From Escherichia coli (GTDB lineage: Bacteria > Pseudomonadota > Gammaproteobacteria > Enterobacterales > Enterobacteriaceae): 64,000 bases of DNA. The position numbers were made by a program, and so were the translations under genes. Numbering within the stretch: the stretch's first letter is position 1; each line of letters begins with the position of its first letter. Below are positions 2,994 to 60,917 of the stretch, one piece after another. The DNA lies in assembly GCF_003334355.1 (NCBI RefSeq), contig NZ_QOWP01000005.1. One strand, given 5' to 3'. A model generated the notes under the pieces. The model ran no database searches and was not told the DNA's origin. It worked only from the letters and a program-made list of their open reading frames with translations.

Positions 2994-5018
<2,025 letters not shown>

Positions 5019-5079: not shown

Positions 5080-6066
5080 TCAGGCGTTGGCGTCTTTGAC
5101 TTCGCGGATGATGTCCTGGTACTCGCGCAATTTCTGCGGAGTCATCATACGGCGCTGATCGTCAAGCACGACACCGCCCACTTCATCGGCAATATGCTGC
5201 GCAGATTGCAGCATCAGCTTGAAGTTCTGCAGCTCGTCACCGTAAGACGGTACCTGCATAAAGATAGTGACACCCGGAGTAGTGAAATCCTTCATTTCAG
5301 GATCAAAGGTTCCCGGTTTCACCATATTCGCCAGGCTGAATAACGCCGGGCCGCTGCCATCCGGGCTAAGATGACGATGGTAAATATTCATATCGCCAAA
5401 AATGAAGCCCGCTTGTTGAATGCTGTTAAGAAGCAGTTCACCGTTTAGCTCGCTACCGTGATGCGCCGCGACGTTCATGATAATCACCGCTTCTTTGCGC
5501 TTCGGTTTATCCATAACTGGAGCCGGTTCCGCTACAGGCTCAGGCTGTGGTGCCGCTACGGGTTCTGCAGGCTGGAAAGCCTGTTGTGCCGGTTGCGGTG
5601 CTGAATGCACAGGCTGCGGCGCTGGCGCGACCTGTGGCGAAACTGGCTGCTGCAACGGCTGTTCAGGCTGCGGCTGATAGGCAGGCTGCTGCACCGGCTG
5701 CGCTGGATGCGGAGCATGTTGCGGCGGTACCTGCGCTTCAGGCGGCTGCTGGACCGGTTGACGCGGCTGCGCAGACGCATAAGGCGGTTGGTACTGGTGT
5801 TGCGGCGACGGACGAGCAGCCTCATGCTCCTGAGCGTTAGCCGGGGCATGATTCACGCGGTGAACACGAACCTCACCAACGCCCTCATCATCTTCGACAT
5901 CCTCGTCATAAGAATCGTCGTCACGTTTTGACTTCATTCGTTTTAATGGCCGATCGCGGAACATAGAAGATCGTTCTTTACGGCTGGTCCAGAAACCATG
6001 TACCAGTAAAGCGATTATGGCGATCGCGCCAACAATGATTAATATCAGACGCAAATCCTGCATCAT
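5080..6066 (-). CDS. zipA: Cell division protein ZipA (FtsZ membrane anchor)
   Basis: Start set at [22 protein letters not shown] (N-terminal TM); long P/Q-rich linker; C-terminal FtsZ-binding domain; 328 aa. Confidence 0.93.
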
Positions 6067-27872: not shown

Positions 27873-28775
<903 letters not shown>

Positions 28776-28780
28776 CTCCC

Positions 28781-29833
28781 TCACCCCCACTCCCGCATCC
28801 GCTGATGCAGCGTCAGTGACGGCTTCTCGGAAAACAGCTGCTGGTAATCCGTGGCAAATTGCCCCAGATGCCAGAATCCCCACTGCATGGCGGCGTCTTT
28901 TACCGTCATACTTTGCGACCACGGACTTATCAGTTCGCGGCGTACGGCGTTCAGGCGAATGCGTTTCAGCCACGCGTTCGGGCCAATGCCTAAAATAGCG
29001 TGAAACGCGTTTTGTAGCGTGCGGCGGCTGACATGCAGTTGATTACACAAATCCAGCACCGTCACCGGTTCGGACATGTTTTCCAGCACATATTCACGGG
29101 CGCGGGAAAGCAATCGACGGTAACTCTGATGACTGATGCTTTCCGCCGTCACCATTGGTTGCGCTTCTTCCAGCATGGCCCCCATCGCCATTAGCAAATT
29201 ATCCCCCAGCACTTTTCGCACTGCAGGCTGATGGAGATTTTCCGGATTCTCGCAAAACGTCGCCAGCGCCTGTTGGACAAAGCCCCACAGCGCGGCTTTA
29301 TGCTGCTCTTTCACTTCCAGCGCCGACTGGTTACGCAACATATGTAATACCCGATCCGGGTTATGCAAAAAGTTAGCCTGCCGGGTGATGACATCTTCAG
29401 AAAGCACCACGCCCAGGATCGTGTAATCATCCGGCGTGCTCAGTTCAAATTCAGTGCCACCAGGGCGGGTGGCGATTTCCGCGCTTCCCAGACATTGCGA
29501 ACCGATAAATCCCTGCTCACCGCGCGTCGCCGGAATGCCAAACCAGAACGAGTTCGGCCAGACCAGGCACGACTGACGCAGCGCCAGACCGGTGTATTCA
29601 CGAAAAACCTGAATATCATCGAGTAGAATTTCCGTAAATTCACCATGAAACTTGCCCGGATGCAGCTGATCGTAAATCTGCTGCCAGGCGGTAATCGTTA
29701 AAGCATGTTCATAGACATCCGTTGTCTGTCGTTGATGAACATTATCCACTTCGACCTTCGGCGTGAGCTTCAGGTTTTCGGGTAAGGGTTCATGATAAAG
29801 ATGGTGCAAATTGGCTGTACGGGTCTTTTTCAT
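28781..29833 (-). CDS. eutR: AraC-family activator of the eut operon
   Basis: 350 aa; C-terminal AraC HTH; last gene of eut cluster. Confidence 0.95.
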
Positions 29834-29878
29834 GATGTTAATGCCGGGTGTTGTAGGACACCCGGCACCTCCGACAGG

Positions 29879-30379
29879 TTAATGGGGCTTGAGACGATAA
29901 CGACTACTGCGTTTACGTAACGTCCCGGCAGAAAAGAGCTGTTCGAGCGCATTTCTGGCTTTTTCCAGCGGCCAGCCAAAGTGGGCAGCCACTTCTCCTG
30001 CCGTCATTCCCTGACGTACTGATGTTAACAGCGCCAACAACTCGTCAGCAGATTCCGCGACGATAACTGGCGCGTCGGGTTCCCTTACGGGTTGCTTCGG
30101 CTGGCGGTTAAAGCCAGTAACCAGCCACTGGGTGTCATCGTCTGGCCGACCGATCTCCTTGCGGCTGATGACACGCCCGGTACGCATCGCGGCAGCACAA
30201 CCTGCGTCCAGCGCCGCACGACACGCCGCCAGATCGCCTTCCACCACCAGCGTTAAGCGACCAGGGTCAAGCACTTCGTGACTGAGCAGACGAACGTTAG
30301 CTGCTTTGAGCATGGCATCCGCTGCATCTATCGCGGCGACCATGCCGTCCACTTCCAGCAATCCCAGTGCATTGATCAT
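29879..30379 (-). CDS. eutK: Microcompartment shell protein EutK (BMC domain + C-terminal nucleic-acid-binding-like domain)
   Basis: 166 aa from MINALGLLEVDGMVAAIDAADAMLKAANV. Confidence 0.93.
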   Translation of the reverse strand: MINALGLLEVDGMVAAIDAADAMLKAANVRLLSHEVLDPGRLTLVVEGDLAACRAALDAGCAAAMRTGRVISRKEIGRPDDDTQWLVTGFNRQPKQPVREPDAPVIVAESADELLALLTSVRQGMTAGEVAAHFGWPLEKARNALEQLFSAGTLRKRSSRYRLKPH

Positions 30380-30391
30380 CGGCAACCTCCG

Positions 30392-31051
30392 TTACGCACG
30401 CTGGATTGGATTACGCGCGATTTCCAGCACTGCATCGGTAAAGGCGTTACAGGCTGCTTTACACGCTGCCTGGCTACCGGTTAAAAATGCTGCCGAGTAG
30501 TTGGTTTCAGACGGTGGCGGGACATAGGTCGCCAGCTGTACGTCGGCAGACTTCAGGGCTGCATCAATGCCATAGGTCGCTTCCAGCGGCGGTGCCACCA
30601 GATACGCCATCGGATCGCCAAGCGTGATCCCGGCGGTTGATGAGAGATAAGAACCGGTACGCGAAACTACATGTGCCAGGAATGCCGTATCTTGCGCGTC
30701 ATTAGCCCACTGGAAAGCTGCGCCATTTTCAATATGCGCAATCATCGCATCCAGACCTGCACGCACTTCCGCCGGGTTTGGCCCACCAAGCATAATCAGC
30801 ACTTCACCGGCAGTCGGTGACGGGCCGTGTGCAGCGCCCGCATATAGCGAGCGGCCATACACCACTTCCACCATCGCCTGCTTGGTCGCTTCATCAGCGG
30901 CAATGTAGGTGACGTCATCGGAGTCGGCAGAAATCAGACCGAGGCTACGAATATGCGGCGGCAATTTCAGTTCACGCGCAAAATCGGCGTTAACGGAGGC
31001 AATCACCCGCATAGCGGTGACAGACGGTCGAATCAAATCTAAAGCTGGCAT
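30392..31051 (-). CDS. eutL: Microcompartment shell protein EutL (tandem BMC)
   Basis: 219 aa. Confidence 0.95.
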
Positions 31052-31060
31052 GATGCCTCC

Positions 31061-31948
31061 TTATCGGGTCATGTTGATGCCGGATGCTTTCTGCTCCAGC
31101 ATACGTTTCGCCAAATCCACAATGACGGCTGCGGCTTCAACCGGCGGCGTGCCGCCCTGGTGAATGTTAGAGATACAGGTGCGATCGGCCTCAACGGTGG
31201 TCGCCATACGCGGCGAGTAAACGGCGTAGCAGGAGAGGCTTTCTGACTGACCCAACCCCGGACGTTCGCCCACCAGCAGGATCACTACTTTCGCGCCGAG
31301 GATCTCACCGATCTGATCTTCAATCTTCACGCGACCATAACGAACAAAGAATGGTGTACCGACTTTCAGCCCGGCCTGTTTCAGGCCCGCCATCAGCGGT
31401 GGCAGGATCTCTTCGTAGTTCACGGTGATCGCATCAGTTGACAGGCCATCAGAAATAACGACCTGTACGTCCGGATTGGCAACACACTGCGCTTTCAGCG
31501 CTTCAACAGCTTCTGCACACAGGCGGCGGCCCATATCCGGGCGAGTCAGGTAGAGATTTTTGTCGCTAATTTCAGAGCGTACTTCCAGCAAGCCCTGCGC
31601 TTTCACCCACTCTTCCGGCACTTCTTTCAGTACGGTATCTTTCGAACGAGAGTGATCGGCCAGGAAACGCAGCAGCGCCTGCGTACGTGGACGCGGACCG
31701 GCACGACCGGTACAAACGCGGGCCACGGTGCTGCGGCGCAGTTCTGTTAATACGTCTGCGCGATGCGGATTTTCAACACCAATCCACGCTTTTGCTTCAG
31801 CGGAACCTAAATCCAGCGCACAGCTTTCCGAGGTCACCGGTGCCGCACAGTTGGTGGTGGCGCACTTTGCTTCTGACGGCGCGGGGGCCGCTTGTCCCAT
31901 TGACGCCATCACGCTGCGTACAATTTCTTCAATCTGTTTTTGATCCAT
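31061..31948 (-). CDS. eutC: Ethanolamine ammonia-lyase small subunit
   Basis: 295 aa. Confidence 0.95.
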
Positions 31949-31968
31949 GATATGTTATCTCCGCGTCA

Positions 31969-33330
31969 TCAGAAGAACAGTGACGGATCGCCCGCCCGTT
32001 TGGTCAGGCGACCGTTTGCCATAATGCCCATGCTTTCCAGCCAGCGTTCAAACTCCGGTGACGGGCGCAGGTTGAGTAACTGACGCACAGTGGCGGTATC
32101 GTGGAATGCGGTGGTCTGGTAGTTGAGCATGATGTCATCACCCAGCGGCATCCCCATGATGTAGTTGCAGCCTGCGGTGGCGAGCAGGATCATCAGGTTT
32201 TCGTTGAGGTTCTGGTCAGCGTCAGCGTGGTTGGTATAACAGCAGTCACAGCCCATAGAGATGCCACTCAGCTTGCCCATAAAGTGATCTTCTAAGCCAG
32301 CACGGATAATCTGGCGGTCGTTGTAGAGATACTCCGGCCCAATAAAGCCGACCACGGTGTTGACGATAAACGGATCGTAATGACGCGCCAGCCCGTAGTT
32401 ACGTGCTTCCATCGTTACCTGGTCTGCGCCGAAGTTAGCGCCAGCGGATAGCGCAGAGCCTTGTCCGGTTTCGAAGTAGAGGCAGTTTTCCCCGGCGATA
32501 CGGTTGAACTCCGCGCCCACTGCGCGCGCTTCGTCGAGCATCGCCAGCTCCACGCCAAACTCTTTCAGCCCTTTTTCGCTGCCACAGATACTCTGGAAAA
32601 TCAGCCCGCCCGGTGCGCCACGACGGATCGCTTCGATCTGGGTGGTGACGTGCGCCAGTACACAGCCCTGAGTTGGGATGTTGAATTTGTCGATCACGCC
32701 ATAGATGGTATCCAACACGCGGCTTAAGTTTTCCACGTCGTCAGTCACCGGGTTAACGCCGATCACCGCATCGCCCACCCCGAAGGAAAGCCCTTCGTAG
32801 ATTTGCGCGGCGATACTTTGCACGTCGTCACGGGTGTCATTTGGCTGCAAACGGGCGCTAAAGGTGCCCGGAATACCGATGGTGGTATTGGCCTTTTTGA
32901 TTACCGGCATTTTCTTCGCGCCGTAGATCAGGTCCGCGTTGGAGCAAATCTTCGCTACCGCCGCGACCACTTCCGAGGTCAGCCCTTTGCGGGTAAAGGC
33001 AATGTCGTCCACGCTGGTTTCATCGCTCAGCACATACTCACGCAGTTCGCTGATGCTCCAGTTTTTAATCTGGTTGTAGGCCGTTTCGTTAACATCGTCC
33101 TGAATCAGCCGCGTCACGCAGTCATCTTCATAGGCAATCACCGGATTATTGCGGATGTCCGCTACGGTCATTTCCGACAACACCTGCTTTGCCGCCACGC
33201 GCTCCTGTGAGCTTGCCGCTGCGACGCCCGCCAGCACATCCCCCGAACGCAGTTCGTTGGCTTTAGCCAGCACCTCTTTTACATCCTTAAACTGATATAC
33301 ATTGCCGAACAATGTGGTCTTTAGTTTCAT
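31969..33330 (-). CDS. eutB: Ethanolamine ammonia-lyase large subunit
   Basis: 453 aa. Confidence 0.97.
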   Translation of the reverse strand: MKLKTTLFGNVYQFKDVKEVLAKANELRSGDVLAGVAAASSQERVAAKQVLSEMTVADIRNNPVIAYEDDCVTRLIQDDVNETAYNQIKNWSISELREYVLSDETSVDDIAFTRKGLTSEVVAAVAKICSNADLIYGAKKMPVIKKANTTIGIPGTFSARLQPNDTRDDVQSIAAQIYEGLSFGVGDAVIGVNPVTDDVENLSRVLDTIYGVIDKFNIPTQGCVLAHVTTQIEAIRRGAPGGLIFQSICGSEKGLKEFGVELAMLDEARAVGAEFNRIAGENCLYFETGQGSALSAGANFGADQVTMEARNYGLARHYDPFIVNTVVGFIGPEYLYNDRQIIRAGLEDHFMGKLSGISMGCDCCYTNHADADQNLNENLMILLATAGCNYIMGMPLGDDIMLNYQTTAFHDTATVRQLLNLRPSPEFERWLESMGIMANGRLTKRAGDPSLFF

Positions 33331-33341
33331 AAGTCGTTCCC

Positions 33342-34745
33342 TCAGGAAGGAAATGCGAGTGATTTCACCGTCACCGGCACAACCGATCCGCCAAAAAGAG
33401 GCGTACCAATGTCGATATAGTCCCCCGCGCGGACAATCACTTCGTCAATGACTGCCAACGGGAGTTGTTGTAGCTGTGGGCGCAACAACATGCCCAGAGC
33501 TTTACCAAAGTCCTGCCCGGCCACCACCAGCAGGGGATGCGGATTCGGAAAACGCGCGACGAAATCGACCAACGCGTTGATGACCGTCAGTACCGCGGCG
33601 TAACGCACAGGCAGCGAGGCGGGAAGCGCCAGCACGTACGCGTCAGTTTTGGGATCAAGATCCAGCTGAATCAGCGCCTGTTGCCAGGCCCCCACCAGAT
33701 CCGTTTCATCAATCGGGATCGCCACCGGCAAATTGCGCAGCGGCAGTTGTACGCCCTCAAGCCAGATTGTGCTGCCAGAGAGCGAAAGGGTATGCGCGCC
33801 CGCGCCAATCACCGTGGCGCGCACGGTTTGCGCCGGAAACTGTACGTTCATCTCACGCAGGCGCGGATGGTCATGCAGCGCAGTTGCCAGCAGCGGGCCA
33901 ATATCGGCAAAACAGAACGGGTCGGCGGGCTGGTGGCGATAACATTCGCCCACGCCGCCAGAAAGCGTAATGATTTCGGGCGTAACACCTGCGGGCAGCA
34001 AACCGGTTTGCATCAATGCCTGCGCGAGCGGTGAGAGCGTTCCGTCAATCACTTCGACAATCAGTTCTGCCATCCGCCGGGTCACCTGCACCAGCTGCGC
34101 GCCGGTCAGCGAACGGGCGTCGGTGCCTGCACCGAAGCACTCATCCACAATCATCTGCCCCGGTTTATGAGCGTAAACCACGCGCCCGTGGCTGTCGGTT
34201 TCCAGCAGGCGACCACCGACGTTGAGGCAGGCAGTGCCGCTGATTTTTCCGGCATCGAACAGGGCGTAGTTCGCGGTGCCACCGCCGATGTCGATATTCA
34301 GTACCCGACACAGCCGTTGTTCAGAAAGGGTTTGTGCCCCGGCTCCGTGACCGGCGATCACGGATTCGAGGTGCGGCCCGGCGCTGGCAACGACAAAATC
34401 GCCCAGCGACTGAGAGAGCGCCATCACCGCCGGGCGAGCATTGCGGGTTTTCGCGCTTTCACCGGTGATGATGATGGCACCAGAATCAACGCTTTCCGGC
34501 TCAATACCCGCAGCATGATATTGCTCGAGTATTAAGGTTTTCAGTTCCGCTTCTTTTAAACCGCCCTGTTTATCGACAGGGGTAAAGAACACCGGACTTT
34601 GCCAGCTAATTTCGCGTTTAATGAATTCGTAGCGCGGCACCTGCGACACCGCCGCACGGTTAACCAGCTCCAGCCGGGAGAAAATCACCTGGGTGGTGGT
34701 GGTGCCGATATCGATACCGACGCTCAATAGCTGGCGAGTGTTCAC
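33342..34745 (-). CDS. eutA: Ethanolamine ammonia-lyase reactivase
   Basis: 467 aa; contiguous with eutB (11-nt spacer). Confidence 0.95.
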   Translation of the reverse strand: MNTRQLLSVGIDIGTTTTQVIFSRLELVNRAAVSQVPRYEFIKREISWQSPVFFTPVDKQGGLKEAELKTLILEQYHAAGIEPESVDSGAIIITGESAKTRNARPAVMALSQSLGDFVVASAGPHLESVIAGHGAGAQTLSEQRLCRVLNIDIGGGTANYALFDAGKISGTACLNVGGRLLETDSHGRVVYAHKPGQMIVDECFGAGTDARSLTGAQLVQVTRRMAELIVEVIDGTLSPLAQALMQTGLLPAGVTPEIITLSGGVGECYRHQPADPFCFADIGPLLATALHDHPRLREMNVQFPAQTVRATVIGAGAHTLSLSGSTIWLEGVQLPLRNLPVAIPIDETDLVGAWQQALIQLDLDPKTDAYVLALPASLPVRYAAVLTVINALVDFVARFPNPHPLLVVAGQDFGKALGMLLRPQLQQLPLAVIDEVIVRAGDYIDIGTPLFGGSVVPVTVKSLAFPS

Positions 34746-35968
34746 GATTGTGCCTCCGCTTCGGTTTTAGTCGCGGTCGCGTCTTCTTTTGGCACCAGCA
34801 TCATCGCCACGCCAATCGCCGTTACGCCGCCGATCAACTTGCCGACAATCATCGGGAAGATCATGGCGTTCATGTTGGCAGCGGCGAAGCCTAAGTGGTC
34901 GCCCAGGGCGAAAGCAGCGGAAACGGCGAAGGCGCAGTTGATGACTTTGCCGCGGGTATCCATCTGCTTCATCATGCCGAACATCGGGATGTTGTTGGCA
35001 AGCGTTGCCACCATGCCGGCTGCCGCGATGTTGTTCATATTCAGTACTTTACCGACGCTCATCAGCGGTTTTTCAAACCAGCGAGTCAGCAGCAGCACCA
35101 TCGGATACGCCCCTAACAGAACGCAGGAGATAGAACCGATAACTTCAATGGCGCGCATCACCTCACCGGGTTTATCGCCAGGGGCCATAAAGATAGGATC
35201 CAGACCGGGGATCAGTTCCCAGCCAAGCAGGAATTTCACTACCGCAGCGGCAAGACCGAGGGTGATCAATGCAACGAGGAATTTGGCGAAGATCTGGAAG
35301 CCGTTGATCATTTTTTCCGGGATGAATTTCAGCCCCAGCGCCACCAGAATCGCAACAATGATCACCGGGATCATGTTCATCAGGATCAGGGCGAAAGTGA
35401 ATTCCACCGGCTGGCCGTTGATCTGCACACCGGAGTACATAGCAACCAGACCACCAGCGATACAACCAATCGGAATGGTCACAATGCCCGCCAGCACGCC
35501 GAGCGCCAGATAACGACGGTCAGAAGGTTCGATAATGCCGAGCGCCACCGGAATGGAAAACACAATCGTTGGCCCCATCATCGACCCGAGAATTAACCCA
35601 GAGTATAGCCACGCGGCTACGTCGCCGCCCGCCAGCTCTTTGGCGAGGAAGAAGCCGCCCATATCGCACGCCAGCAGTGTTCCGGCGAACATCGATGGGT
35701 TAGCGCCGAGCATTTCGTAAACCGGAATAATTACCGGCCCGAGAACGTGAGCCAGTACCGGTGCCAGCGCGGTCATACCGACCATCGCCAGGCCCAGTGC
35801 GCCCATTGCCATAAAGCCTTCTTCGAACTGACCGCCTGATCCTTCGATACTTTTACCGAACTTACCGAGGAAACGAGCAGAACCGCCGAACTGCGACAGG
35901 ATCCTGTCTACGGCAGCTATCAGCATAAAGAACATCATGATGTACATGATGATTTCGTTAATTCCCAT
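34742..35968 (-). CDS. eutH: Ethanolamine permease/facilitator
   Basis: 408 aa polytopic membrane protein. Confidence 0.95.
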   Translation of the reverse strand: MGINEIIMYIMMFFMLIAAVDRILSQFGGSARFLGKFGKSIEGSGGQFEEGFMAMGALGLAMVGMTALAPVLAHVLGPVIIPVYEMLGANPSMFAGTLLACDMGGFFLAKELAGGDVAAWLYSGLILGSMMGPTIVFSIPVALGIIEPSDRRYLALGVLAGIVTIPIGCIAGGLVAMYSGVQINGQPVEFTFALILMNMIPVIIVAILVALGLKFIPEKMINGFQIFAKFLVALITLGLAAAVVKFLLGWELIPGLDPIFMAPGDKPGEVMRAIEVIGSISCVLLGAYPMVLLLTRWFEKPLMSVGKVLNMNNIAAAGMVATLANNIPMFGMMKQMDTRGKVINCAFAVSAAFALGDHLGFAAANMNAMIFPMIVGKLIGGVTAIGVAMMLVPKEDATATKTEAEAQS

Positions 35969-35998
35969 CGCCTTTACTCCCTGTTAGTTGTTATTTAT

Positions 35999-36183
<185 letters not shown>

Positions 36184-36184
36184 T

Positions 36185-37372
36185 TTATTGCGCCGCTGCG
36201 TACAGGCCGACAATCTGCTCCAGGCTGGCGGTACGCGGGTTACTGCGCAGACAAATATCTTCCAGCGCGGCCTGCGCCCATGCGCCGTAATGCGCAGATG
36301 TCGCACCAACATCGCCCAGTCGTTTACCAATCCCAACTTCCGCAATCAGCTCACTTACCGCGTTAATAGCGTCACGATCGTCGGATTTTTTAGTTCGCAG
36401 TGCCCGACCAATCTGACTAAAGCGTTCACGACAAACCATCCGGTTAAATTCCATCACCGTTGGCAGCAACATGGCGTTCGCGAGACCGTGCGGAATATGC
36501 AGCGCCGCGCCCGGCTGATGCGCCATCGCGTGGCACAACCCAAGACCCGCACTGGAAAACGCCATTCCCGCCATACATGAAGCCAGTAACATGCTCTCGC
36601 GCGCGGCAAGGTCGTGACCGTAGCCCACCGCTTTCGGCAGCGATTTGCCAATCATCGCAATGGCACCAATCGCCAGGCTGTCGGTAAACGGTGTAGCGTT
36701 CAGGGCGCTGTATGCTTCAATGGCATGGGTTAACGCATCAATGCCGGTCATCGCCGTGACATGCGACGGCACACCTTCGGTCAATGCGGCGTCGAGGATC
36801 GCCACATCCGGCATCAGCGAGGCATGGGCTAACACCTGCTTGCGCCCGCTCACCGCGTCGATAATCACCGTTACATTGGTGGTTTCAGAGCCGGTTCCGG
36901 CGGTCGTTGGAATGGCAATCAGCGGCAAGCGCGGTTGCAGAACGCTGGTTTCTGACATCTCTGCCAGCGTGCTATCGGGGTTCGTCACCAGCAACGCCAC
37001 GGCTTTCGCCGCATCCAGCACCGAGCCGCCGCCAAATGCGATCACCCCATCACAGCCTGACTCACGCAACTGCGCCACGGCTGCACACACGTCGGTAATG
37101 CACGGTTCGCCCACCGGACATGGCCAGAGCGTCATGGCGATGCCTTTAACAGCCAGGCTGCGCGTCAGCCCGGCGGTCATCCCCGCCTGATGCAAAAAGC
37201 TGTCTGCCATCACGAACAGATGTTTCAGCCCACGCGTTTGCGCTTGCTGCCCGCAACTGCTCACCGCGCCCGGACCGCAAAGCGTCACCGGTGGAACGCT
37301 AAATGTTTTTACCCGTTGCAGATTCAGGGTATCGAACGCCTGAAAGAGCGCGGTCTGCAATTCATTTTGCAT
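36185..37372 (-). CDS. eutG: Iron-containing alcohol dehydrogenase
   Basis: 395 aa from MQNELQTALFQAF; Fe-ADH fold. Confidence 0.93.
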   Translation of the reverse strand: MQNELQTALFQAFDTLNLQRVKTFSVPPVTLCGPGAVSSCGQQAQTRGLKHLFVMADSFLHQAGMTAGLTRSLAVKGIAMTLWPCPVGEPCITDVCAAVAQLRESGCDGVIAFGGGSVLDAAKAVALLVTNPDSTLAEMSETSVLQPRLPLIAIPTTAGTGSETTNVTVIIDAVSGRKQVLAHASLMPDVAILDAALTEGVPSHVTAMTGIDALTHAIEAYSALNATPFTDSLAIGAIAMIGKSLPKAVGYGHDLAARESMLLASCMAGMAFSSAGLGLCHAMAHQPGAALHIPHGLANAMLLPTVMEFNRMVCRERFSQIGRALRTKKSDDRDAINAVSELIAEVGIGKRLGDVGATSAHYGAWAQAALEDICLRSNPRTASLEQIVGLYAAAQ

Positions 37373-38198
37373 ATAGCCCCTCCGCTTTCTCTCGCCCACT
37401 ACTGGCGATCGCCAGCGGGGTCATAAACAAACTGTGCTGCGGTAAATGCACCTGTAACGCCGGGAATTGTTTGCGAAACAGTTCCGCCACGCCCGGTTGC
37501 AAACAAGAGCCGCCCGCCAGCCATAAATCAGTAATGCCCTGCCCTTCAATATGCCGGGCGACAATGTCCGCCATTTTTTCGTACACCGGTTTCACCGCAG
37601 GCCAAATCTCTTCACCGTGACCGCGCTTGTACTGCTCCGCCTCTTCCAGCGAAATACGGCGATTTCCGGCGAGAGTCAGAGAGATGTGATGTCCGCCGGT
37701 GGCTTCATCCGCCGAGTACGTCACCTTGCCCTTTTTCACGATGGCAATGCCGGTAGTGCCGCCGCCGATATCCACTACACCGGCGTTGTCCAGTTGCAGC
37801 AGATCCGCAACTGCGGTTGGCTCATCCAGCACATGGCTCACTTCCAGCCCGGCAGATTCCAGCACGTTGATGGAAATACGCGGGTCCGTACCTGGAGGAA
37901 ATGAAGTCGCCGCATGGCTAAAACGAAGACCGAATTGCTGCTCAAGAGTGTCGAGATGGCGACGAACAATGGTGACCGCACCGAAGAAATCCCAGACGAT
38001 GCCGTCGCGGACCACATCGGCCCAGTCGAGGCATACCGCCACCGGCTGACCGTCGCGGTCAACAACCATCGACACCACATCGCAGGTGCCCAGATCCACC
38101 CCCAGCCACAGCGGAGATTCCGTCGCGGCGGGCGTCTGGTTACACAGCGTTGCCGCCGTTTGCAGACGTGGGGTGAGCCATTGTTCGTCGTGCGCCAT
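37362..38198 (-). CDS. eutJ: Hsp70/actin-fold chaperone-like protein EutJ
   Basis: 278 aa; DIGGGTTG nucleotide-binding motif. Confidence 0.93.
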   Translation of the reverse strand: MAHDEQWLTPRLQTAATLCNQTPAATESPLWLGVDLGTCDVVSMVVDRDGQPVAVCLDWADVVRDGIVWDFFGAVTIVRRHLDTLEQQFGLRFSHAATSFPPGTDPRISINVLESAGLEVSHVLDEPTAVADLLQLDNAGVVDIGGGTTGIAIVKKGKVTYSADEATGGHHISLTLAGNRRISLEEAEQYKRGHGEEIWPAVKPVYEKMADIVARHIEGQGITDLWLAGGSCLQPGVAELFRKQFPALQVHLPQHSLFMTPLAIASSGREKAEGLYAK

Positions 38199-38208
38199 CT
38201 GTTACTCC

Positions 38209-39612
38209 TTAAACAATGCGAAACGCATCGACTAATACACAGCGACGCAGACGGACAAACGTACGCGCGCTGGTTACCCCTTCACCGGTTGGCGTGGTGA
38301 TGGTCATGGTGGTCCAGCCTTCCCCGCCCAGCCCCAGCCCGGCAATGCACGGTCCGTTCTTAACGAAAATGCTGGTATCAATAGCATTCGCCATCTGGTT
38401 CATGTTTTCGATGTTGCGCGAGTGCATTGCCGCCGTGTGGTGGCAACCGCCTTCCAGTTTCACCGCCAGCGCAATGGCATCCGCCACGTTGGCGACGCGC
38501 ACGACGGGCAGCACCGGCATCATCAGTTCGGTCACGGCAAACGGATGTTCTGCAGTGGTTTCCACAAACAGCAAACGCGTTTCTTGCGGCACGTTCAGGC
38601 CGATTGCCGCCGCGATTTTCGCCGCATCGCGACCAACCCAGTCACGGCTGACGGTGCCTTTTCCGCGCTCGTCGATATTTTTCAGCAACACCGGTTGCAG
38701 CTGCTGCGCCTGTTCTGCGGTCAGTTTCACCGCGTGCTGGCCTTCCATCAGACGCATCAGTTCATCGGCTACGCTATCAACAACAATCAGTACCTTTTCG
38801 TCGGCACAAATGATGTTGTTATCGAAAGAAGCGCCTTTGACGATGGACTGAGCGGCACGGGCGAGGTCGGCGGTTTCATCCACCACTACCGGCGGGTTGC
38901 CAGCGCCTGCGGCAATCAGACGTTTATTGGTGTGTTTACGCGCCGCTTCTACTACCGCTTCGCCGCCGGTCACCACCAGAAGGCCGATGCCCGGAAACTT
39001 GAACAAACGCTGCGCGGTTTCGATATCCGGATTTGCCACAGTAACCAGTAAGTTTTCCGGCCCGCCTGCGGCAACAATCGCCTGGTTGAGCAGCGTGATC
39101 GCCCGCTGGGAGACTTTTTTCGCCGCCGGATGCGGGGCAAAAATGACGCTGTTGCCCGCGGCAATCAGGCTGATGGCGTTATTAATTACGGTTGCCGCCG
39201 GGTTAGTGGACGGAGTTACCGAAGCCACCACGCCCCAGGGCGCGTTTTCAATTAAAGTCAGGCCGTTGTCGCCGGTCAGCACCTGCGGAGAGAGACACTC
39301 AACGCCTGGCGTGCCGCGCGCCTGAGCGACGTTTTTGGCAAATTTATCTTCAACGCGGCCCATGCCGGTTTCACTGACGGCAAGTTCCGCTAAATCTCTG
39401 GCGTGTTTTTCGCCTGCCTCACGAATGGCAGCAATGGCTAACTGGCGCATTGCCACGCTTTTTAACCCTTGCTGGGCGACTTTGGCTGCCGCAACGGCGT
39501 CATCCAGGGACGCGAAAACGCCCATCTCATGAACGGCGGCGGGCGGCATGTCACTGCTTTGCATTTTCAGCAGTACCGCTTTCACCACCTGTTCAATATC
39601 CTGTTGATTCAT
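38209..39612 (-). CDS. eutE: CoA-acylating acetaldehyde dehydrogenase
   Basis: 467 aa aldehyde dehydrogenase fold. Confidence 0.95.
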   Translation of the reverse strand: MNQQDIEQVVKAVLLKMQSSDMPPAAVHEMGVFASLDDAVAAAKVAQQGLKSVAMRQLAIAAIREAGEKHARDLAELAVSETGMGRVEDKFAKNVAQARGTPGVECLSPQVLTGDNGLTLIENAPWGVVASVTPSTNPAATVINNAISLIAAGNSVIFAPHPAAKKVSQRAITLLNQAIVAAGGPENLLVTVANPDIETAQRLFKFPGIGLLVVTGGEAVVEAARKHTNKRLIAAGAGNPPVVVDETADLARAAQSIVKGASFDNNIICADEKVLIVVDSVADELMRLMEGQHAVKLTAEQAQQLQPVLLKNIDERGKGTVSRDWVGRDAAKIAAAIGLNVPQETRLLFVETTAEHPFAVTELMMPVLPVVRVANVADAIALAVKLEGGCHHTAAMHSRNIENMNQMANAIDTSIFVKNGPCIAGLGLGGEGWTTMTITTPTGEGVTSARTFVRLRRCVLVDAFRIV

Positions 39613-39623
39613 GATGTTCTGCC

Positions 39624-39911
39624 TTATTTGTGGAAAATTACCTGACCGCCAGACACCACCTCATCGACAATGCCAATCACGCACAGATCGACCGGTGACG
39701 TTTCGCTTTTATGCGCCTGGCGGGCGGAACTGCCACTCACCAGTAACACCCACTCCCCGGTCCCCGCGCCAATATTGTCGATGGCGACGGCGCATTGCCC
39801 GTCAGGATTACCTTGTGAATCAATCATTTCCACCATCAGCAATTTGTCATGCGCCAGTCCGTGATGGCGTACGGTACAAACAATTTGTCCAGTGACGACT
39901 GCCAGTTTCAT
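39624..39911 (-). CDS. eutN: Microcompartment vertex protein (EutN/CcmL family)
   Basis: 95 aa; MKLAVVTGQIVCTVRH. Confidence 0.93.
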   Translation of the reverse strand: MKLAVVTGQIVCTVRHHGLAHDKLLMVEMIDSQGNPDGQCAVAIDNIGAGTGEWVLLVSGSSARQAHKSETSPVDLCVIGIVDEVVSGGQVIFHK

Positions 39912-40017
39912 ACCCGCCTCCGTGGCGTATTTCAGGTAAAAGCTCCCCCTACCCTCCGCAGAAGGTAAAATGAAAAAGGAGAGAGCGTGACGCCCGAATC
40001 GACGTCACACAGGGTGA

Positions 40018-40311
40018 TTACAGGTTGCTGCTATCGCCTTTCAGGCCGATCGGGAAGACTTCTTCCAGGTCGCCGTGCGGACGCGGGATAACGTGTACAG
40101 ATACCAGCTCGCCGATACGCTGTGCCGCTGCGGCACCTGCATCGATCGCGGCTTTACAGGCTGCAACATCACCACGAACCATGGCAGTACACAGGCCGCC
40201 GCCAATCTGCTTAACACCAACCAGCTTGACGCGCGCAGCTTTCACCATCGCGTCAGAAGCCTCAATCAGTGCAACCAGGCCCCGGGTTTCGATCATTCCT
40301 AATGCTTCCAT
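40018..40311 (-). CDS. eutM: Major microcompartment shell protein (BMC-H)
   Basis: 97 aa from [26 protein letters not shown]; longer track ORF rejected. Confidence 0.93.
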
Positions 40312-40349
40312 TGTGCTTTCCTCTTTATCAGGGTCCAGAACGGGACCGT

Positions 40350-41366
40350 TCATTCAACCAGTGTTTGTAAACTGCTTTCGCGGTTCACTTCTGTCTGACG
40401 CGGCACAGCTGCCACCAGCGCCAGCTCGATAATTTCCTGCACGCTACAACCACGAGAGAGATCGTGCATCGGCGCGGCAAGTCCTTGTATCAGTGGCCCG
40501 ACGGCACGATATCCGCCGAGTCGTTGTGCGATTTTGTAACCAATATTTCCGGCTTCCAGCGACGGAAAAACCATCACATTGGCCTTGCCCTGTAGCGGGC
40601 TGGCAGGCGCTTTTTGCGCCGCCACTTCCGGCACGAAGGCGGCGTCAAACTGTAACTCGCCATCCACCACCAGCTTTGGTGCGCGCTCACGGACGATTTC
40701 TGTCGCCTGCTGGACGTTAGCAACACAGGGGTGACGGGCGCTACCATTGCTGGAAAACGACAGCATCGCCACGCGCGGCTCTTCTCCGGTGATGGCGCGC
40801 CAGGTTTCGGCACTGGCAAGCGCGATATCCGCCAGCTGCGCCGCCGTCGGCTGTGGCACCACGCTGCAATCGGCAAAGCCCAACGCCGGGCCGCTGTACT
40901 GTGGCAACATCAGGAAAATGGAAGAGAGCGTTTTACAGCCTGGCTGCAAGCCGATAATGCGTAATCCGGCACGCAGCACATTTGCCGTGGAAGAGAGGTT
41001 GCCCGCGATACAGACATCCGCTTTACCGGCGCTGACCATTGCTGCGGCGAACATCAGAGGGTCGGTAAGTTTTTCCAGCGCATCCGGCGGCGTTTTTTCG
41101 CCCGCGCGGGCCAGCCAGCGATGAGCAAATTCTTCCCGCATTGCGAGGTTGCCATGCGGATCAATCACCTGTAGCCCGTCCATCGCCACGCCGTGACTGA
41201 GCGCAAACTGACGAAGTTCAAACGGATTGGCGACCAGAATGGGCGTTGCCAGACCTTGTTGATGTAAATATTGCGCGGCTTTCAGCACACGTTGGTCTAA
41301 CGCATCCGGAAAAACCACTCTGGCGGGCGCTCGCAACGCCAGTTCACGACAACGTTCAATAATCAT
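40350..41366 (-). CDS. eutD: Phosphotransacetylase
   Basis: 338 aa PTA fold. Confidence 0.95.
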
Positions 41367-42165
41367 TGCGTTCCCCCAGTCGTTGTTGGATCTGCTTCAC
41401 CGTTAGCGGCTGCTTCGTTACGCTCAGGATCATCATCACGTAGACCGTGCTGGAAAGGCGGTTCAGCGCCTGCAAAATGTCCGGGCGTAATACTTCAAAG
41501 CTGCGGGTGATAAAGACCTGCGCCGCTACGGTTTCGGTTTCCCGCACTTTGGTGCGTAGCAGATTGAGCAACGCAGCATCGCGCCCGTGGCTGGCTTCCG
41601 GCACCAGATGATCGTGGTCGAGATAGCGCAGCGGCTGATGAGAAAGCCGATGCAGATCTTCGTCAGAAAGCCCGACAATCGCCTGGCAGCCCAGCGGTTC
41701 CCCCAGCGCATCGGCGCGCATAATGTTGCCAAGACGCGAACGGATATCCGCCAGCCACGGCTGCCACGGTTCCGCCAGTTCAATTTGCAGCCACACTACC
41801 AGCGCAATGGTGCTGTCGAGAACCGCGCGAAAACCCAGACGCGGATCGCTTTTGGCGACCATTTTTTCCGCCGACAGGTGAGTCAGCGTATCCGGCTTTT
41901 TTGCCACCGGCTGGCGACACAGTTCGCAGCACGCCTGCGGATGTTCATCGCTACTGGTCAGCCCATGAACGGGCTGCGGCTGCTGCTGTTCATCGTCAAC
42001 AAACAGGCGGCCCTGCTCGTCAATAAACTTGATGCGCAGATGGCGGCTTTCCAGCAACTCCCGGGCAGAGGGCGTCAGGCGACTGTCCGCAGGGAGATGG
42101 ATCTCTGCGCCTTCGCTGAGCGTATGGTTCGCTCTTAGCCATGCTTCGGTGATGAAATCTTTCAT
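41356..42165 (-). CDS. eutT: Corrinoid (cobalamin) adenosyltransferase
   Basis: About 267-269 aa; cysteine motif CCELC; start codon not resolved to within 2 codons. Confidence 0.9.
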
Positions 42166-42863
42166 AGGGATTGCCAGTTAGCCGGCCAGGCGACATACAG
42201 GAATTTCACGCTGGATGTCGTACCAAATTCGATGCTGGAGCCTTTCGGGATAAACATCACGTCGCCTGCTTTGGCGATCATGGTTTGGCCTTCGTGGCGA
42301 ACATGCAGCTCCCCTTCCAGCACCATGTCGATTTCGTCGTAGTTCAGGGTCCACGGGAAGAATGCGTTCTCCCACTGCATAAAACCGGCGGCCATGCTGC
42401 TGCCGTCGTCTCCGGTCACAAGATCAGTCAAGCCCACGCAATGCGGCTCTGCGCCGTCGAAACGACCAAACTTGACGCTACTGCCATCAATCACTTTGAT
42501 GCCGCCTTTGCCGGTCACCGATTTGAAGCTCGGCTGCATTGCGCCCTGCTCCAGCGACTGTTTTTCCTTCATCACTTTTTCCATCAGCTGTGCGACCAGG
42601 CTTTCGGTAAACTGGCCTTCCGGCAGCTGGGCAATGATGGTTTCGCGGATGCGCTGGCTTTCGGTTTTGTCGGCTGGCACGCTGGCGGGCACGGACGCCG
42701 TTACCGGGATCGATTCATCACATTCGGTGATGGTAAAACCCAGTAGATCCGCCACTTCACGGGCTTCCGGGGTAATAATGCTGGCGCGCAGAACCACGGA
42801 CATTGCCTGTTCGCCGCGCGCGTGTGCTTCACGAATATCATTCGCTGTGATGAGTTTTTTCAC
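42162..42863 (-). CDS. eutQ: Cupin-fold protein EutQ
   Basis: 233 aa. Confidence 0.93.
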   Translation of the reverse strand: MKKLITANDIREAHARGEQAMSVVLRASIITPEAREVADLLGFTITECDESIPVTASVPASVPADKTESQRIRETIIAQLPEGQFTESLVAQLMEKVMKEKQSLEQGAMQPSFKSVTGKGGIKVIDGSSVKFGRFDGAEPHCVGLTDLVTGDDGSSMAAGFMQWENAFFPWTLNYDEIDMVLEGELHVRHEGQTMIAKAGDVMFIPKGSSIEFGTTSSVKFLYVAWPANWQSL

Positions 42864-43317
42864 CTGCTTCCTCCTGTTTGGTGAGAGATGCCAGATAATC
42901 CACCAGTTGCTGCACGCTTTGCGGGTCGTGGCTGTTTAGCACGAAAATCGGCTCTTCGAAACCCGTCTCAAGCAATAACTTTCGCGTTGCGGCGACGTCA
43001 GCATCTGGCATGTCCGTTTTACTGATGACGGCGATTTGCCGTTTGCTGACGCCAATATCCAGCAACCCGGCAGGCAACCGACTTTCCGGGTCATTTGCGC
43101 CATGGACATAGATCAGCATGTCTACATCCTGTAGCGTGGTAATTAAGGCGTGATACCAGCGGGGATGGTTAAAATATTCACCCGGCGTATCAATATCGCC
43201 CTTATCATTAAATTCCACGGCCTGTGTTTTTCTGGCGAGGGTATAATTCCCCTGCAACGCATTAAATAACGTTGTTTTTCCTGCCCCGACGCTACCCACA
43301 AACGCAATTCGTTTCAT
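42838..43317 (-). CDS. eutP: P-loop NTPase EutP
   Basis: 159 aa; Walker A GSVGAGKTTL. Confidence 0.93.
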   Translation of the reverse strand: MKRIAFVGSVGAGKTTLFNALQGNYTLARKTQAVEFNDKGDIDTPGEYFNHPRWYHALITTLQDVDMLIYVHGANDPESRLPAGLLDIGVSKRQIAVISKTDMPDADVAATRKLLLETGFEEPIFVLNSHDPQSVQQLVDYLASLTKQEEAGEKTHHSE

Positions 43318-43329
43318 GAATGCCTCGTA

Positions 43330-43665
43330 TTAACTTTTGGTCATTTCACAAAGCGTATAATTTAATAAGCGACCTAAACCGCTGACGGTTTGTGATAACG
43401 CTTCTTCTACTGCGCCCACCGAGCCATAAATCACCAATGCACCGCTGAATCGGTCGAGAAAACCGATATGCACATCAGCGGCTTTCAGCGCTAAATCACC
43501 GGCGATCATCGCCGTTTCGCCGGGAGTTAGCGTCATAATGCCAATTGCGCCCGCATCCGGAACGCCGATTTTCTTCGCCAGTTCCTCACCGGGATGCGCG
43601 ATGAGATGCGCCAGTGTGACCTGTTTGCCGGGCACAAATTCCTGAATGATGCGTTCTTTATCCAT
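43330..43665 (-). CDS. eutS: Microcompartment shell protein EutS (permuted BMC)
   Basis: 111 aa from [15 protein letters not shown]; first gene of operon. Confidence 0.9.
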
Positions 43666-43957
43666 GAGTCGCCGCCTGTGAAAAACTTTCGTGTATCGTG
43701 ACAATTTTTCGTCAGAGTAAATAACAAAATTCGGCAAGCGCGTTTAAAAGGTGAGGTAGATCACTAAGAATGGAGAGATATTCGCTGTGGTGCATAAACT
43801 TTCATATGCAACGCATGAATATAAATAAAATAATATCGAGATATTATATAGACTGCTTTTTTTTATTATTCGCAAACTCAGTAATAAGCTTTACTAATAT
43901 ATTGCAGCTAAACTGCTTACCCTGAATATTCAGGGTAAGCGTGAGAGTTAAAAAAAA
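43666..43957 (-). promoter_or_regulatory. eut operon upstream region (expected EutR-dependent promoter) plus maeB 3' region
   Basis: 292-bp AT-rich non-coding segment upstream of eutS; contains perfect palindrome cttaccctgaatattcagggtaag (43916-43939). Confidence 0.45.
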
Positions 43958-46237
43958 TTACAGCGGTTGGGTTTGCGCTTCTACCACGGCCAGCGCCACC
44001 ATGTTGACGATACGACGCACCGATGCGATCGGCGTTAACACGTGAACCGGTTTCGCCACACCCATCAGCACCGGGCCGACAGTCACACCTTCCGAGCTGG
44101 AAACACGCAGTAAGTTGTAACTAATGCGGGCAGCTTCCATGTTCGGCATCACCAGAATATTGGCGGAACCTTTCAAAGAGCTGTCCGGCATACGGTCGTT
44201 GCGAATCGCTTCCACCAGCGCTGCATCGCCGTGCATTTCACCATCAATCATCAGTTCTGGTGCACGTTCCCTGACCAGTTCCAGCGCCTGACGCATTTTG
44301 CTCGACGACGGGCAGTCAGAAGAACCAAAGTTGGAGTGCGACAACAAAGCAACGCGCGGCTCAATACCAAAACGACGGACAGTTTCTGCCGCCATCAAGG
44401 TGATCTCCGCCAGCTCTTCTGCATCCGGTTCATCATTAACATATGTATCGGCAATAAAGGTGTTACCACTCGGCAGCAGCAGCGCGTTCATGGCACCTGC
44501 GGTGTGAACGCCATCGCGATAACCAAAGACATTTTTCACCACGCTAAAATGTTCATGATAATCACCCACCGTACCGCAAATCATTGCATCGGCTTCCCCA
44601 CGCTGAACCATGATCGCGCCGATCACTGTCGGGTTACTGATCAGCGCCCGCTGCGCCTGTTCCTGAGTGACGCCGCGACGCTTCATGATCTGGAAGTATT
44701 CGGTCCAGTACTCTTTAAAGCGCGGATCGGATTCGTTATTGACGATCTCAAAATCAACGCCCGCTTTGATCTGCAAGCCCAGTTTCTGAATGCGCATTTC
44801 GATCACGTTCGGACGACCGATAAGGATCGGTTTCGCCAGTCCCAGCGTTACCAGTTCCTGAGTGGCATGCAGAACGCGCGCCTCTTCCCCTTCCGGCAGA
44901 ACAACGCGCTTCGGCGCTTTGCGAGCCTGGGAGAAAATCGGCTTCATAAACAGGTTGGTTTTGTAAACGAACTCAGTCAGCTTGTCGATGTAGACGTCGA
45001 AATCAGCAATCGGACGAGTCGCCACGCCCGACTCCATCGCGGCTTTAGCGACCGCAGGAGCGATCTTAACGATCAAGCGCGGATCAAAAGGTTTTGGAAT
45101 GATGTATTCCGGACCAAAGCTCAGATCCTGATCGCCATACGCTGAAGCCACCACTTCGCTCTGTTCCGCATGGGCGAGTTCTGCAATCGCACGTACCGCC
45201 GCCAGTTTCATCTCTTCGTTGATGGCGGTTGCGCCAACGTCCAGCGCGCCACGGAAGATGAACGGGAAGCACAGGACGTTGTTCACCTGGTTCGGATAGT
45301 CAGAACGACCGGTGCAAATGATGGCATCCGGACGCACTTCTTTCGCCAGCGGCGGCAGAATTTCCGGTTCCGGGTTCGCCAGCGCCAGGATCATTGGCGC
45401 ACGAGCCATTTTCTTCACCATTTCCTGGGTCAGCACTTTCGGGCCGGAACAGCCCAGGAAAATATCCGCGCCTTCAATCACATCATCGAGGGTACGTTTG
45501 CCGTCATCCACCACCGCATATGCGGCTTTGGTTTCCGCCATGTTTGGCTCACGGCCCTGATAGATAACGCCTTTTGAATCGCAAACCACGATGTTATGTT
45601 TTTGCAGACCCAGCGCTACCAGCAGGTTCATACAGGCGATTGCTGCGGCACCCGCGCCGGAAACCACCATCCGCACGTCGGAGATGTTTTTCTCCACCAC
45701 GCGCAAGCCGTTGAGGATGGCGGCAGTGCTGATAATTGCCGTGCCGTGCTGATCGTCGTGGAATACCGGAATATTCATCCGCTCGCGCAGTTTCTGTTCA
45801 ATATAGAAACATTCTGGCGCTTTAATGTCTTCGAGGTTGATGCCGCCGAAGGTTGGTTCGAGCGCGGCGACAACTTCAATAAATTTGTCCGGGTCGAGTT
45901 CGTCAACTTCAATGTCAAATACATCAATCCCGGCGAATTTCTTAAACAGAACGCCCTTGCCTTCCATCACCGGTTTGCCTGCCAGCGCGCCAATGTTGCC
46001 TAACCCCAGCACCGCCGTACCGTTAGAGATCACCGCCACCAGGTTACCGCGGGCGGTATATTTGTAGGCTTTTAACGGGTCTTTTTCGATTTCAAGACAA
46101 GGTGCGGCAACGCCTGGTGAGTAGGCCAGCGCCAGATCGCGCTGTGTTGCCAGAGGCTTGGTTGGAGAAACCTGGATTTTCCCTGGAACTGGAAATTCAT
46201 GGAAATCAAGTGCACTTTGTTTTAACTGGTCATCCAT
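43958..46237 (-). CDS. maeB: NADP-dependent malic enzyme
   Basis: 759 aa; N-terminal malic enzyme domain plus C-terminal PTA-like domain. Confidence 0.97.
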
Positions 46238-60837: not shown

Positions 60838-60917
60838 GTAGGCCGGATAAGGCGTTAACGCCGCATCCGGCAATGGTGAACGATGCCTGATGCGACGCTC
60901 ACGCGTCTTATCAGGCC
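60838..60917. repeat. REP/BIME pair
   Basis: gtaggccggataaggcgttaacgccgcatccggca and gcctgatgcgacgctcacgcgtcttatcaggcc. Confidence 0.8.

Follow-up and report, generated by a model that had tools for sequence, protein, structure and literature searches.

A canonical EUT1-type ethanolamine-utilization operon at its core-genome site in an Escherichia coli genome

The ethanolamine-utilization (eut) genes form a 17-gene operon, eutR included, in the core genome of Escherichia coli (PMC6652756), and the operon of K-12 W3110 forms Eut microcompartments and supports growth on ethanolamine (PMC11334477). In K-12 MG1655 and BW25113, the CPZ-55 prophage interrupts the operon between eutA and eutB, and this interrupted form has been reported to be eut-negative until the insertion is removed (PMC11334477, PMC6652756). 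Here we describe the eut locus in a 64,000-nucleotide (nt) stretch of E. coli DNA (assembly GCF_003334355.1, contig NZ_QOWP01000005.1; hereafter the window, to which all positions refer). The locus runs on the minus strand from the eutS ATG at 43665 to the eutR stop at 28781 and is nearly identical to that of W3110, which belongs to the same species, lies at the same maeB...hemF site and has its 17 genes in the same order. It also shares its genes and sequences with MG1655 and BW25113, but eutA and eutB are only 11 nt apart in the window.

Salmonella enterica, the paradigm for 17-gene eut operons, can synthesize B12 in the absence of oxygen and carries a pdu locus as well. E. coli is not known to synthesize cobalamin de novo, and its pathway depends on an external corrinoid. 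We sampled the Salmonella and Citrobacter loci from maeB to eutB, and the gene order in both is that of the window. The similarity to Salmonella extends to a conserved block upstream of eutS and to spacers after eutM and eutG; the proteins differ slightly in length, with EutQ at 229 amino acids (aa) in Salmonella versus 233 here and EutM at 96 versus 97. Overall, the Eut proteins of Salmonella and E. coli are >73% identical (PMC11334477). The EUT2-type loci of Firmicutes (Enterococcus, Listeria and Clostridium) share EutBC, an aldehyde dehydrogenase, a phosphotransacetylase and the BMC shell logic but are controlled by EutVW and a small RNA containing an adenosylcobalamin riboswitch. The window instead encodes an AraC-type EutR as the last gene of its operon, and an Rfam scan of the window at gathering thresholds returned no cobalamin riboswitch, only tRNAs, RtT and the naRNA4 family derived from repetitive extragenic palindromic (REP) sequences. 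This result fits EutR-type (EUT1) control rather than the EutVW/riboswitch type.

Identity, position and integrity of the operon

Seventeen consecutive co-oriented open reading frames (ORFs) follow one another on the minus strand in the order eutS-P-Q-T-D-M-N-E-J-G-H-A-B-C-L-K-R, at a chromosomal site flanked by maeB and hemF. An earlier reading of the stretch from its letters alone (the sequence-only reading) had listed these genes as present, co-oriented and in this order, and had suggested a domain search of each product as a check. We scanned every product against NCBIfam profiles with curated cut-offs, and each of the 17 aligns with its own Eut model along virtually the full profile and well above the cut-off, so that the gene list, order, orientation and coordinates of that reading are correct. 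That reading also held all of the genes to be intact. Each spans a whole number of codons and reads through to its stop codon uninterrupted; the start codon is ATG except in eutQ and eutA, which have GTG. These starts follow the RefSeq annotation of E. coli H6, and the gene coordinates agree with that annotation as well.

A 14,957-nt eut query aligns in one piece to E. coli H6 at 99.9% identity; it is present in all 5,426 complete E. coli genomes, and in 4,294 of them one place accounts for 80% or more of its length. The entire 64-kb window is collinear with H6 at 99.8–99.9% identity, in a run comprising the val/lys tRNA cluster beside gltX, cys, pts, mur, amiA-hemF, eut, maeB-tal-tkt and ypfJ.

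We therefore consider it almost certain that positions 28781–43665 hold the canonical EUT1-type ethanolamine-utilization microcompartment operon of E. coli, intact and free of prophage interruption. This is an already known and well-studied core-genome system in a known place and a known species, with minor allelic quirks only; the sequence-only reading likewise took it for a known rather than a novel system, a view backed by published work (PMC6652756, PMC11334477). The annotation of the window can be trusted, and the strain is predicted to be Eut-positive when cobalamin is supplied, unlike K-12 MG1655-type strains. The minor features described below (the EutT tail, the T56I substitution in EutM, the copy number of a bacterial interspersed mosaic element (BIME) and the stem-loops) represent ordinary population variation or low-stakes regulatory leads.

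Gene products and the predicted pathway

As judged from the translations and family profiles, the signature enzyme, shell set, aldehyde-handling core, cofactor-maintenance and accessory genes, regulator and gene order that define an enterobacterial EUT1 operon are all present. EutS, Q, D, H, A, B, C, L, K and R, ten proteins in all, are identical to those of K-12 in the AG100 record, against which all of our K-12 protein and eutS-upstream comparisons were made. These include both subunits of the EUT1 signature enzyme, the adenosylcobalamin-dependent ethanolamine ammonia-lyase (EAL), each matched by its own model above the cut-off: the large subunit EutB (31969–33330, 453 aa; NF011649, 665 bits, cut-off 554) and the small subunit EutC (31061–31948, 295 aa; NF003971, 340 bits, cut-off 230).

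The EUT1 shell set is complete, and family models confirm the four shell paralogues (EutS, M, K and L) and the vertex protein EutN that had been read from the letters. The BMC-H class is represented by the major hexameric shell protein EutM (40018–40311, 97 aa; NF012018, 209 bits, cut-off 133, profile positions 1–97 of 97) and by EutK, which joins a BMC domain to a C-terminal extension (29879–30379, 166 aa; NF012010, 361 bits, cut-off 218, profile 1–166 of 166). EutS is the circularly permuted BMC-H protein (43330–43665, 111 aa; NF012012, 247 bits, cut-off 123, profile 1–111 of 111), EutL is the trimeric tandem-BMC protein of the BMC-T class (30392–31051, 219 aa; NF011934, 400 bits, cut-off 198; TIGR04502, 334 bits) and EutN is the pentameric BMC-P protein (39624–39911, 95 aa; NF011992, 208 bits, cut-off 118, full length). 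In Salmonella and Citrobacter, the orthologous shell proteins are annotated with the Pfam domains BMC and EutN_CcmL.

The aldehyde core is likewise complete, comprising the CoA-acylating acetaldehyde dehydrogenase EutE (38209–39612, 467 aa; NF011927, 738 bits, full length), the phosphotransacetylase EutD (40350–41366, 338 aa; NF007233, 411 bits; TIGR00651, 331 bits) and the iron-dependent alcohol dehydrogenase EutG (36185–37372 from the RefSeq start, 395 aa; NF011998, 891 bits, profile 1–395 of 395). Both cofactor-maintenance proteins are present: the EAL reactivase EutA (33342–34745, 467 aa, GTG start; NF007991, 1,069 bits, full length) and the ATP:cob(I)alamin adenosyltransferase EutT (41356–42165, 269 aa; NF011595, 569 bits, profile 1–266 of 267), in which the Pfam Cob_adeno_trans domain covers residues 95–246. 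The EutT translation contains H-X11-CC-X2-C, which we take to be the EutT motif. The accessory genes are all matched by their own models: eutH, for the ethanolamine permease or facilitator (34742–35968, 408 aa; NF011665, 874 bits, full length); eutJ, for a DnaK/actin-fold protein (37362–38198, 278 aa; NF011660, 400 bits); eutP, for an EutP/PduV GTPase-like acetate kinase (42838–43317, 159 aa; NF012011, 347 bits, full length); and eutQ, for a cupin acetate kinase and shell–cargo linker (42162–42863, 233 aa, GTG start; NF012001, 502 bits, full length). The AraC-family activator EutR (28781–29833, 350 aa; NF007522, 789 bits, cut-off 319, full length) completes the set.

The N-terminal stretches of EutE (PMC12487888) and EutC (PMC12487888, PMC11334477) have been described as encapsulation peptides, a targeting role that we take from the literature. 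In the window, the EutE N-terminus reads MNQQDIEQVVKAVLLKMQ, and its first 20 residues match K-12, from which EutE first departs a little further on, at residues 22 and 24. The EutC N-terminus is present, in a protein identical to K-12 throughout. For Salmonella, the N-terminal helices of EutQ have been reported to link shell and cargo (PMC12487888).

Established work on Salmonella and E. coli K-12, carried over to this operon, predicts the following pathway. EutR, together with ethanolamine and adenosylcobalamin, would activate the promoter upstream of eutS, and EutH would facilitate ethanolamine entry. The shell would have facets of EutM and EutL with minor EutS and EutK, and vertices of EutN. 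Inside it, EutBC, targeted by the EutC N-terminal peptide, would split ethanolamine into acetaldehyde and ammonia, and EutE would convert the acetaldehyde to acetyl-CoA. EutG would recycle NAD+ by making ethanol, and EutD would recycle CoA by making acetyl-phosphate, both within the shell; EutP and EutQ, acting as acetate kinases, would turn acetyl-phosphate into acetate and ATP. EutA would reactivate the lyase, EutT would adenosylate cob(I)alamin and the EutQ N-terminus would tether cargo to the shell (PMC12487888).

Two cross-similarities involve EutQ. Residues 1–50 of EutT and EutQ (positions 42016–42165 and 42714–42863) share 34% identity (pairwise E = 3e-4); on the EutQ side they correspond to helices H1 and H2, reported as shell-binding in a 2025 Salmonella study, and in EutT they fall within residues 1–94, outside the Pfam domain. 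This likeness may point to a common shell-targeting motif. Separately, the EutA model NF007991 cross-matches EutQ residues 6–92 (42588–42848) with E = 1.6e-9. We rejected a shared EutQ–EutA domain, as a direct BLASTP comparison of the two proteins was not significant (best E = 0.41), and the match is probably an artefact that stems from the model and not from the two proteins.

Control region, gene junctions and stem-loop spacers

The 301-nt region between maeB and eutS is 100% identical to that of K-12. Within it, a block of ~80 nt upstream of eutS (43690–43769, minus strand) is nearly invariant in an alignment of E. coli, Salmonella and Citrobacter; the remainder of the spacer is unconserved, and its length differs greatly among the three genera. 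The block holds a CRP-like palindrome, GTGATCTACCTCAC (43751–43764), and an invariant segment, CTTGCCGAATTTTGTTATTTAC (43717–43738), each a unique match in the window. From its position, its conservation and the known catabolite and EutR control of the operon, we infer that this block is a putative EutR/CRP-dependent promoter. A sigma-70 consensus scan of positions 28500–44100 found no site upstream of eutS and two weak internal sites, with 8.6 expected by chance; such a scan says little here, which is what an activator-dependent promoter would lead one to expect. The hairpin that immediately follows the maeB stop codon, CTTACCCTGAATATTCAGGGTAAG (43907–43957), is probably the maeB terminator and would insulate eut from maeB read-through. 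At the opposite end, hemF (plus strand) and eutR (minus strand) converge with 5 nt between their stop codons (28775–28781), which leaves no room for an intergenic terminator of either transcript.

Between these limits, the genes had been described as tightly packed, with a 26-nt overlap of eutP and eutQ and further overlaps at eutT/eutD and eutJ/eutG. All three overlaps are real (26, 11 and 11 nt), and two more, of 4 nt each, occur at eutQ/eutT and eutH/eutA. Most of the remaining junctions measure 9–20 nt and carry a Shine-Dalgarno-like purine run. Packing is not tight at every junction, being broken by spacers of 216 nt (eutG–eutH), 106 nt (eutM–eutN), 45 nt (eutK–eutR) and 38 nt (eutD–eutM). 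The same five junctions (P/Q, Q/T, T/D, J/G and H/A) overlap in Salmonella and Citrobacter, and the overlaps probably couple translation at these five sites. On this point the sequence-only reading had spoken of consistency with translational coupling, and consistency, rather than proof, is what the comparison adds.

The two longest spacers contain stem-loops. The eutG–eutH spacer (35969–36184, minus strand) consists of two tandem 100-nt BIME units, which amount to four REP palindromes (tandem-repeat period 100, 1.9 copies, 97% matches); the first REP begins 2 nt past the eutG TAA. Rfam places naRNA4 at 36049–36130 (71.8 bits), and the spacer folds at -98.9 kcal/mol (z = -3.2). In the eutM–eutN spacer (39912–40017, minus strand), a scan for terminator-like structures found a 10-bp GC-rich hairpin (40010–39985) followed by a U-rich tract; the 121-nt stretch containing this spacer (39905–40025) folds at -43.5 kcal/mol (z = -2.3). 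Both spacers exist in Salmonella and Citrobacter, and both carry strong palindromes there. The spacer after eutG holds a single pair of REPs in Salmonella and just one REP in Citrobacter. After eutM, the element is REP-type in Salmonella (extract 5590–5701) and Citrobacter (extract 5579–5701) and cannot be aligned with the non-REP hairpin of E. coli. A stem-loop after eutM is thus conserved across the three genera in position and not in sequence.

These elements bear on an alternative to a single uniform transcript, namely that the 17 genes are segmented, with the stem-loops after eutM and eutG acting as partial terminators or mRNA-decay barriers and eutR having its own weak promoter. Roof and Roth reportedly described a separate constitutive promoter for eutR in Salmonella. 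The stable hairpin with its U tract after eutM, the four REPs after eutG and the recurrence of stem-loops in the same two spacers of Salmonella and Citrobacter, where the sequences are unalignable, all agree with segmentation. So does the proteome of K-12, in which, with EutQ set to 100, levels are very uneven: EutM 96, EutN 1, EutE 27, EutG 7, EutB 37 and EutL 39 (PMC11334477). These same values, however, include abundant EutE and EutB encoded downstream, which argues that any termination at the stem-loops must be weak; we accordingly rejected a strong terminator at the eutM–eutN hairpin as the explanation for low EutN. REPs, moreover, abound between the genes of E. coli, and neither fold has more than a modest z-score. 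BIME copy number also varies by strain, with one unit and a 116-nt spacer in strain E41 versus 216 nt here, which argues against tight selection. On balance we regard segmentation as unlikely, though it is the alternative that fares best, and a role of the stem-loops as mRNA-decay barriers is possible.

A more speculative proposal, to which we give slightly less credence, is that the two long spacers are selected elements, that is, decay barriers or partial terminators that would help set microcompartment stoichiometry. It draws on the occurrence, in all three genera, of a stable stem-loop behind both eutM, which encodes the most abundant shell protein, and eutG, despite unrelated sequences. 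Stop-proximal REPs have been proposed in general to damp translation, and the one next to the eutG stop may do so for EutG. A full-text literature search pairing eut with REP terms found no REP term in the papers among the matches listed. The position-conserved stem-loops are a modest lead, open to experiment, on how organelles encoded in operons set the ratios of their components.

Allelic variation and the eutA–eutB junction

Nothing substantial weighs against reading the locus as a canonical and intact operon. Two points could be raised: a frameshift at the 3' end of eutT, which swaps the last two residues for four and is widespread among natural as well as laboratory strains, and the rarity of the T56I substitution in EutM. 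Alignment to H6 shows the eutT lesion to be a 1-nt deletion in an A-run, AAA to AA (GGGGGAAACGC to GGGGGAACGC), between positions 41370 and 41371. The deletion site, GGGGGAA|CGC (41368–41372, minus strand), lies directly upstream of the eutD ATG at 41366. Only the last two codons are shifted in frame, and EutT ends in ...LGERNDY (269 aa) rather than in the ...LGETQ (267 aa) of K-12; this tail is the sole difference in protein length from K-12. The eutT stop is displaced 7 nt downstream, into eutD, with the eutD ATG unaffected, and the overlap of the two genes grows to 11 nt, compared with 4 nt in K-12 and the 4-nt ATGA of H6, Salmonella and Citrobacter. The eutD ATG also comes 1 nt closer to the GGGGG(A) run, which resembles a Shine-Dalgarno sequence.

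H6, the closest overall match, does not carry the deletion. The exact 81-mer spanning it nevertheless occurs in at least 256 of the 5,426 complete genomes, including E. coli B derivatives, E. coli C and ATCC 8739, and RefSeq calls the 810-nt allele intact (WP_000651266.1 in BLR(DE3)). We rejected sequencing error and a pseudogenizing lesion as explanations in view of this 81-mer count and of the public 269-aa protein. The sequence-only reading had named a missed frameshift as the finding that would overturn its claim of intact genes. Such a frameshift does exist, but the allele is natural, common and, as far as its sequence indicates, non-disruptive, and the operon still counts as intact. A pseudogene label would be wrong for an EutT of 269 aa. 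The allele may retune eutT–eutD coupling in the B and C lineages.

Apart from the EutT tail, seven proteins (EutP, T, M, N, E, J and G) differ from K-12 by 1–4 residues, and each of the seven has an exact counterpart among public E. coli entries. The change in EutM, T56I (codon 56, position 40145), is found as an exact protein on 14 public contigs of a larger collection. Among the 5,426 complete genomes, the best 10 matches to its 81-mer are all 98.8% identical and none is exact, with one further record in the band of at least 99%. We regard it as a rare, probably conservative allele of the major shell protein: position 56 is T or V in homologous BMC-H shell proteins.

Either of the two changes could mean that the operon looks complete yet is functionally impaired, with the eutT deletion or EutM T56I compromising cobalamin adenosylation, EutD expression or shell assembly. 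The deletion is real, with its displaced stop and altered spacing to the eutD ATG, and T56I is rare. Yet the eutT allele is fixed in those 256 or more complete genomes, across the B, C and ATCC 8739 lineages, and its change falls beyond the Pfam adenosyltransferase domain, with the NCBIfam match still spanning 266 of 267 profile positions; an isoleucine at EutM position 56, given the T or V of homologous shell proteins, is probably conservative. We consider impairment very improbable and retain the reading of an intact operon.

The last alternative, a degenerate copy or one split by a prophage, as in MG1655 and BW25113, could draw on the 1,132 of 5,426 complete genomes in which no single place covers 80% or more of the query and on the standing of the eutA–eutB junction as a prophage hot spot (PMC6652756), but it is refuted by the sequence, in which the two genes lie 11 nt apart and the 14,957 nt align in one piece to H6. 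The junction itself (33331–33341, minus strand) is the unoccupied form of the CPZ-55 site of MG1655, with no CPZ-55-type prophage or other insertion between eutA and eutB in the window. The K-12 AG100 record also has no prophage there; instead, 90 nt comprising the eutA 3' end and spacer are duplicated (extract 4851–4951) and annotated as a 24-aa EutA fragment. This duplication looks like an excision or attachment-site scar, and the window lacks it.

Relative to H6, 15 of 19 substitutions cluster in ~560 nt (39255–39818) that span the 5' part of eutE and eutN. This cluster looks like a short recombination tract in a near-identical background. Elsewhere in the window, a REP/BIME element lies at 60841–60917, where Rfam matches naRNA4 on both strands (92.7 and 61.5 bits). 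Positions 1–311 hold a pair of tRNA genes, of which the window edge truncates the first, and then an RtT RNA match (186–311); this arrangement agrees with the tRNA-Val/tRNA-Lys and RtT annotation of H6.

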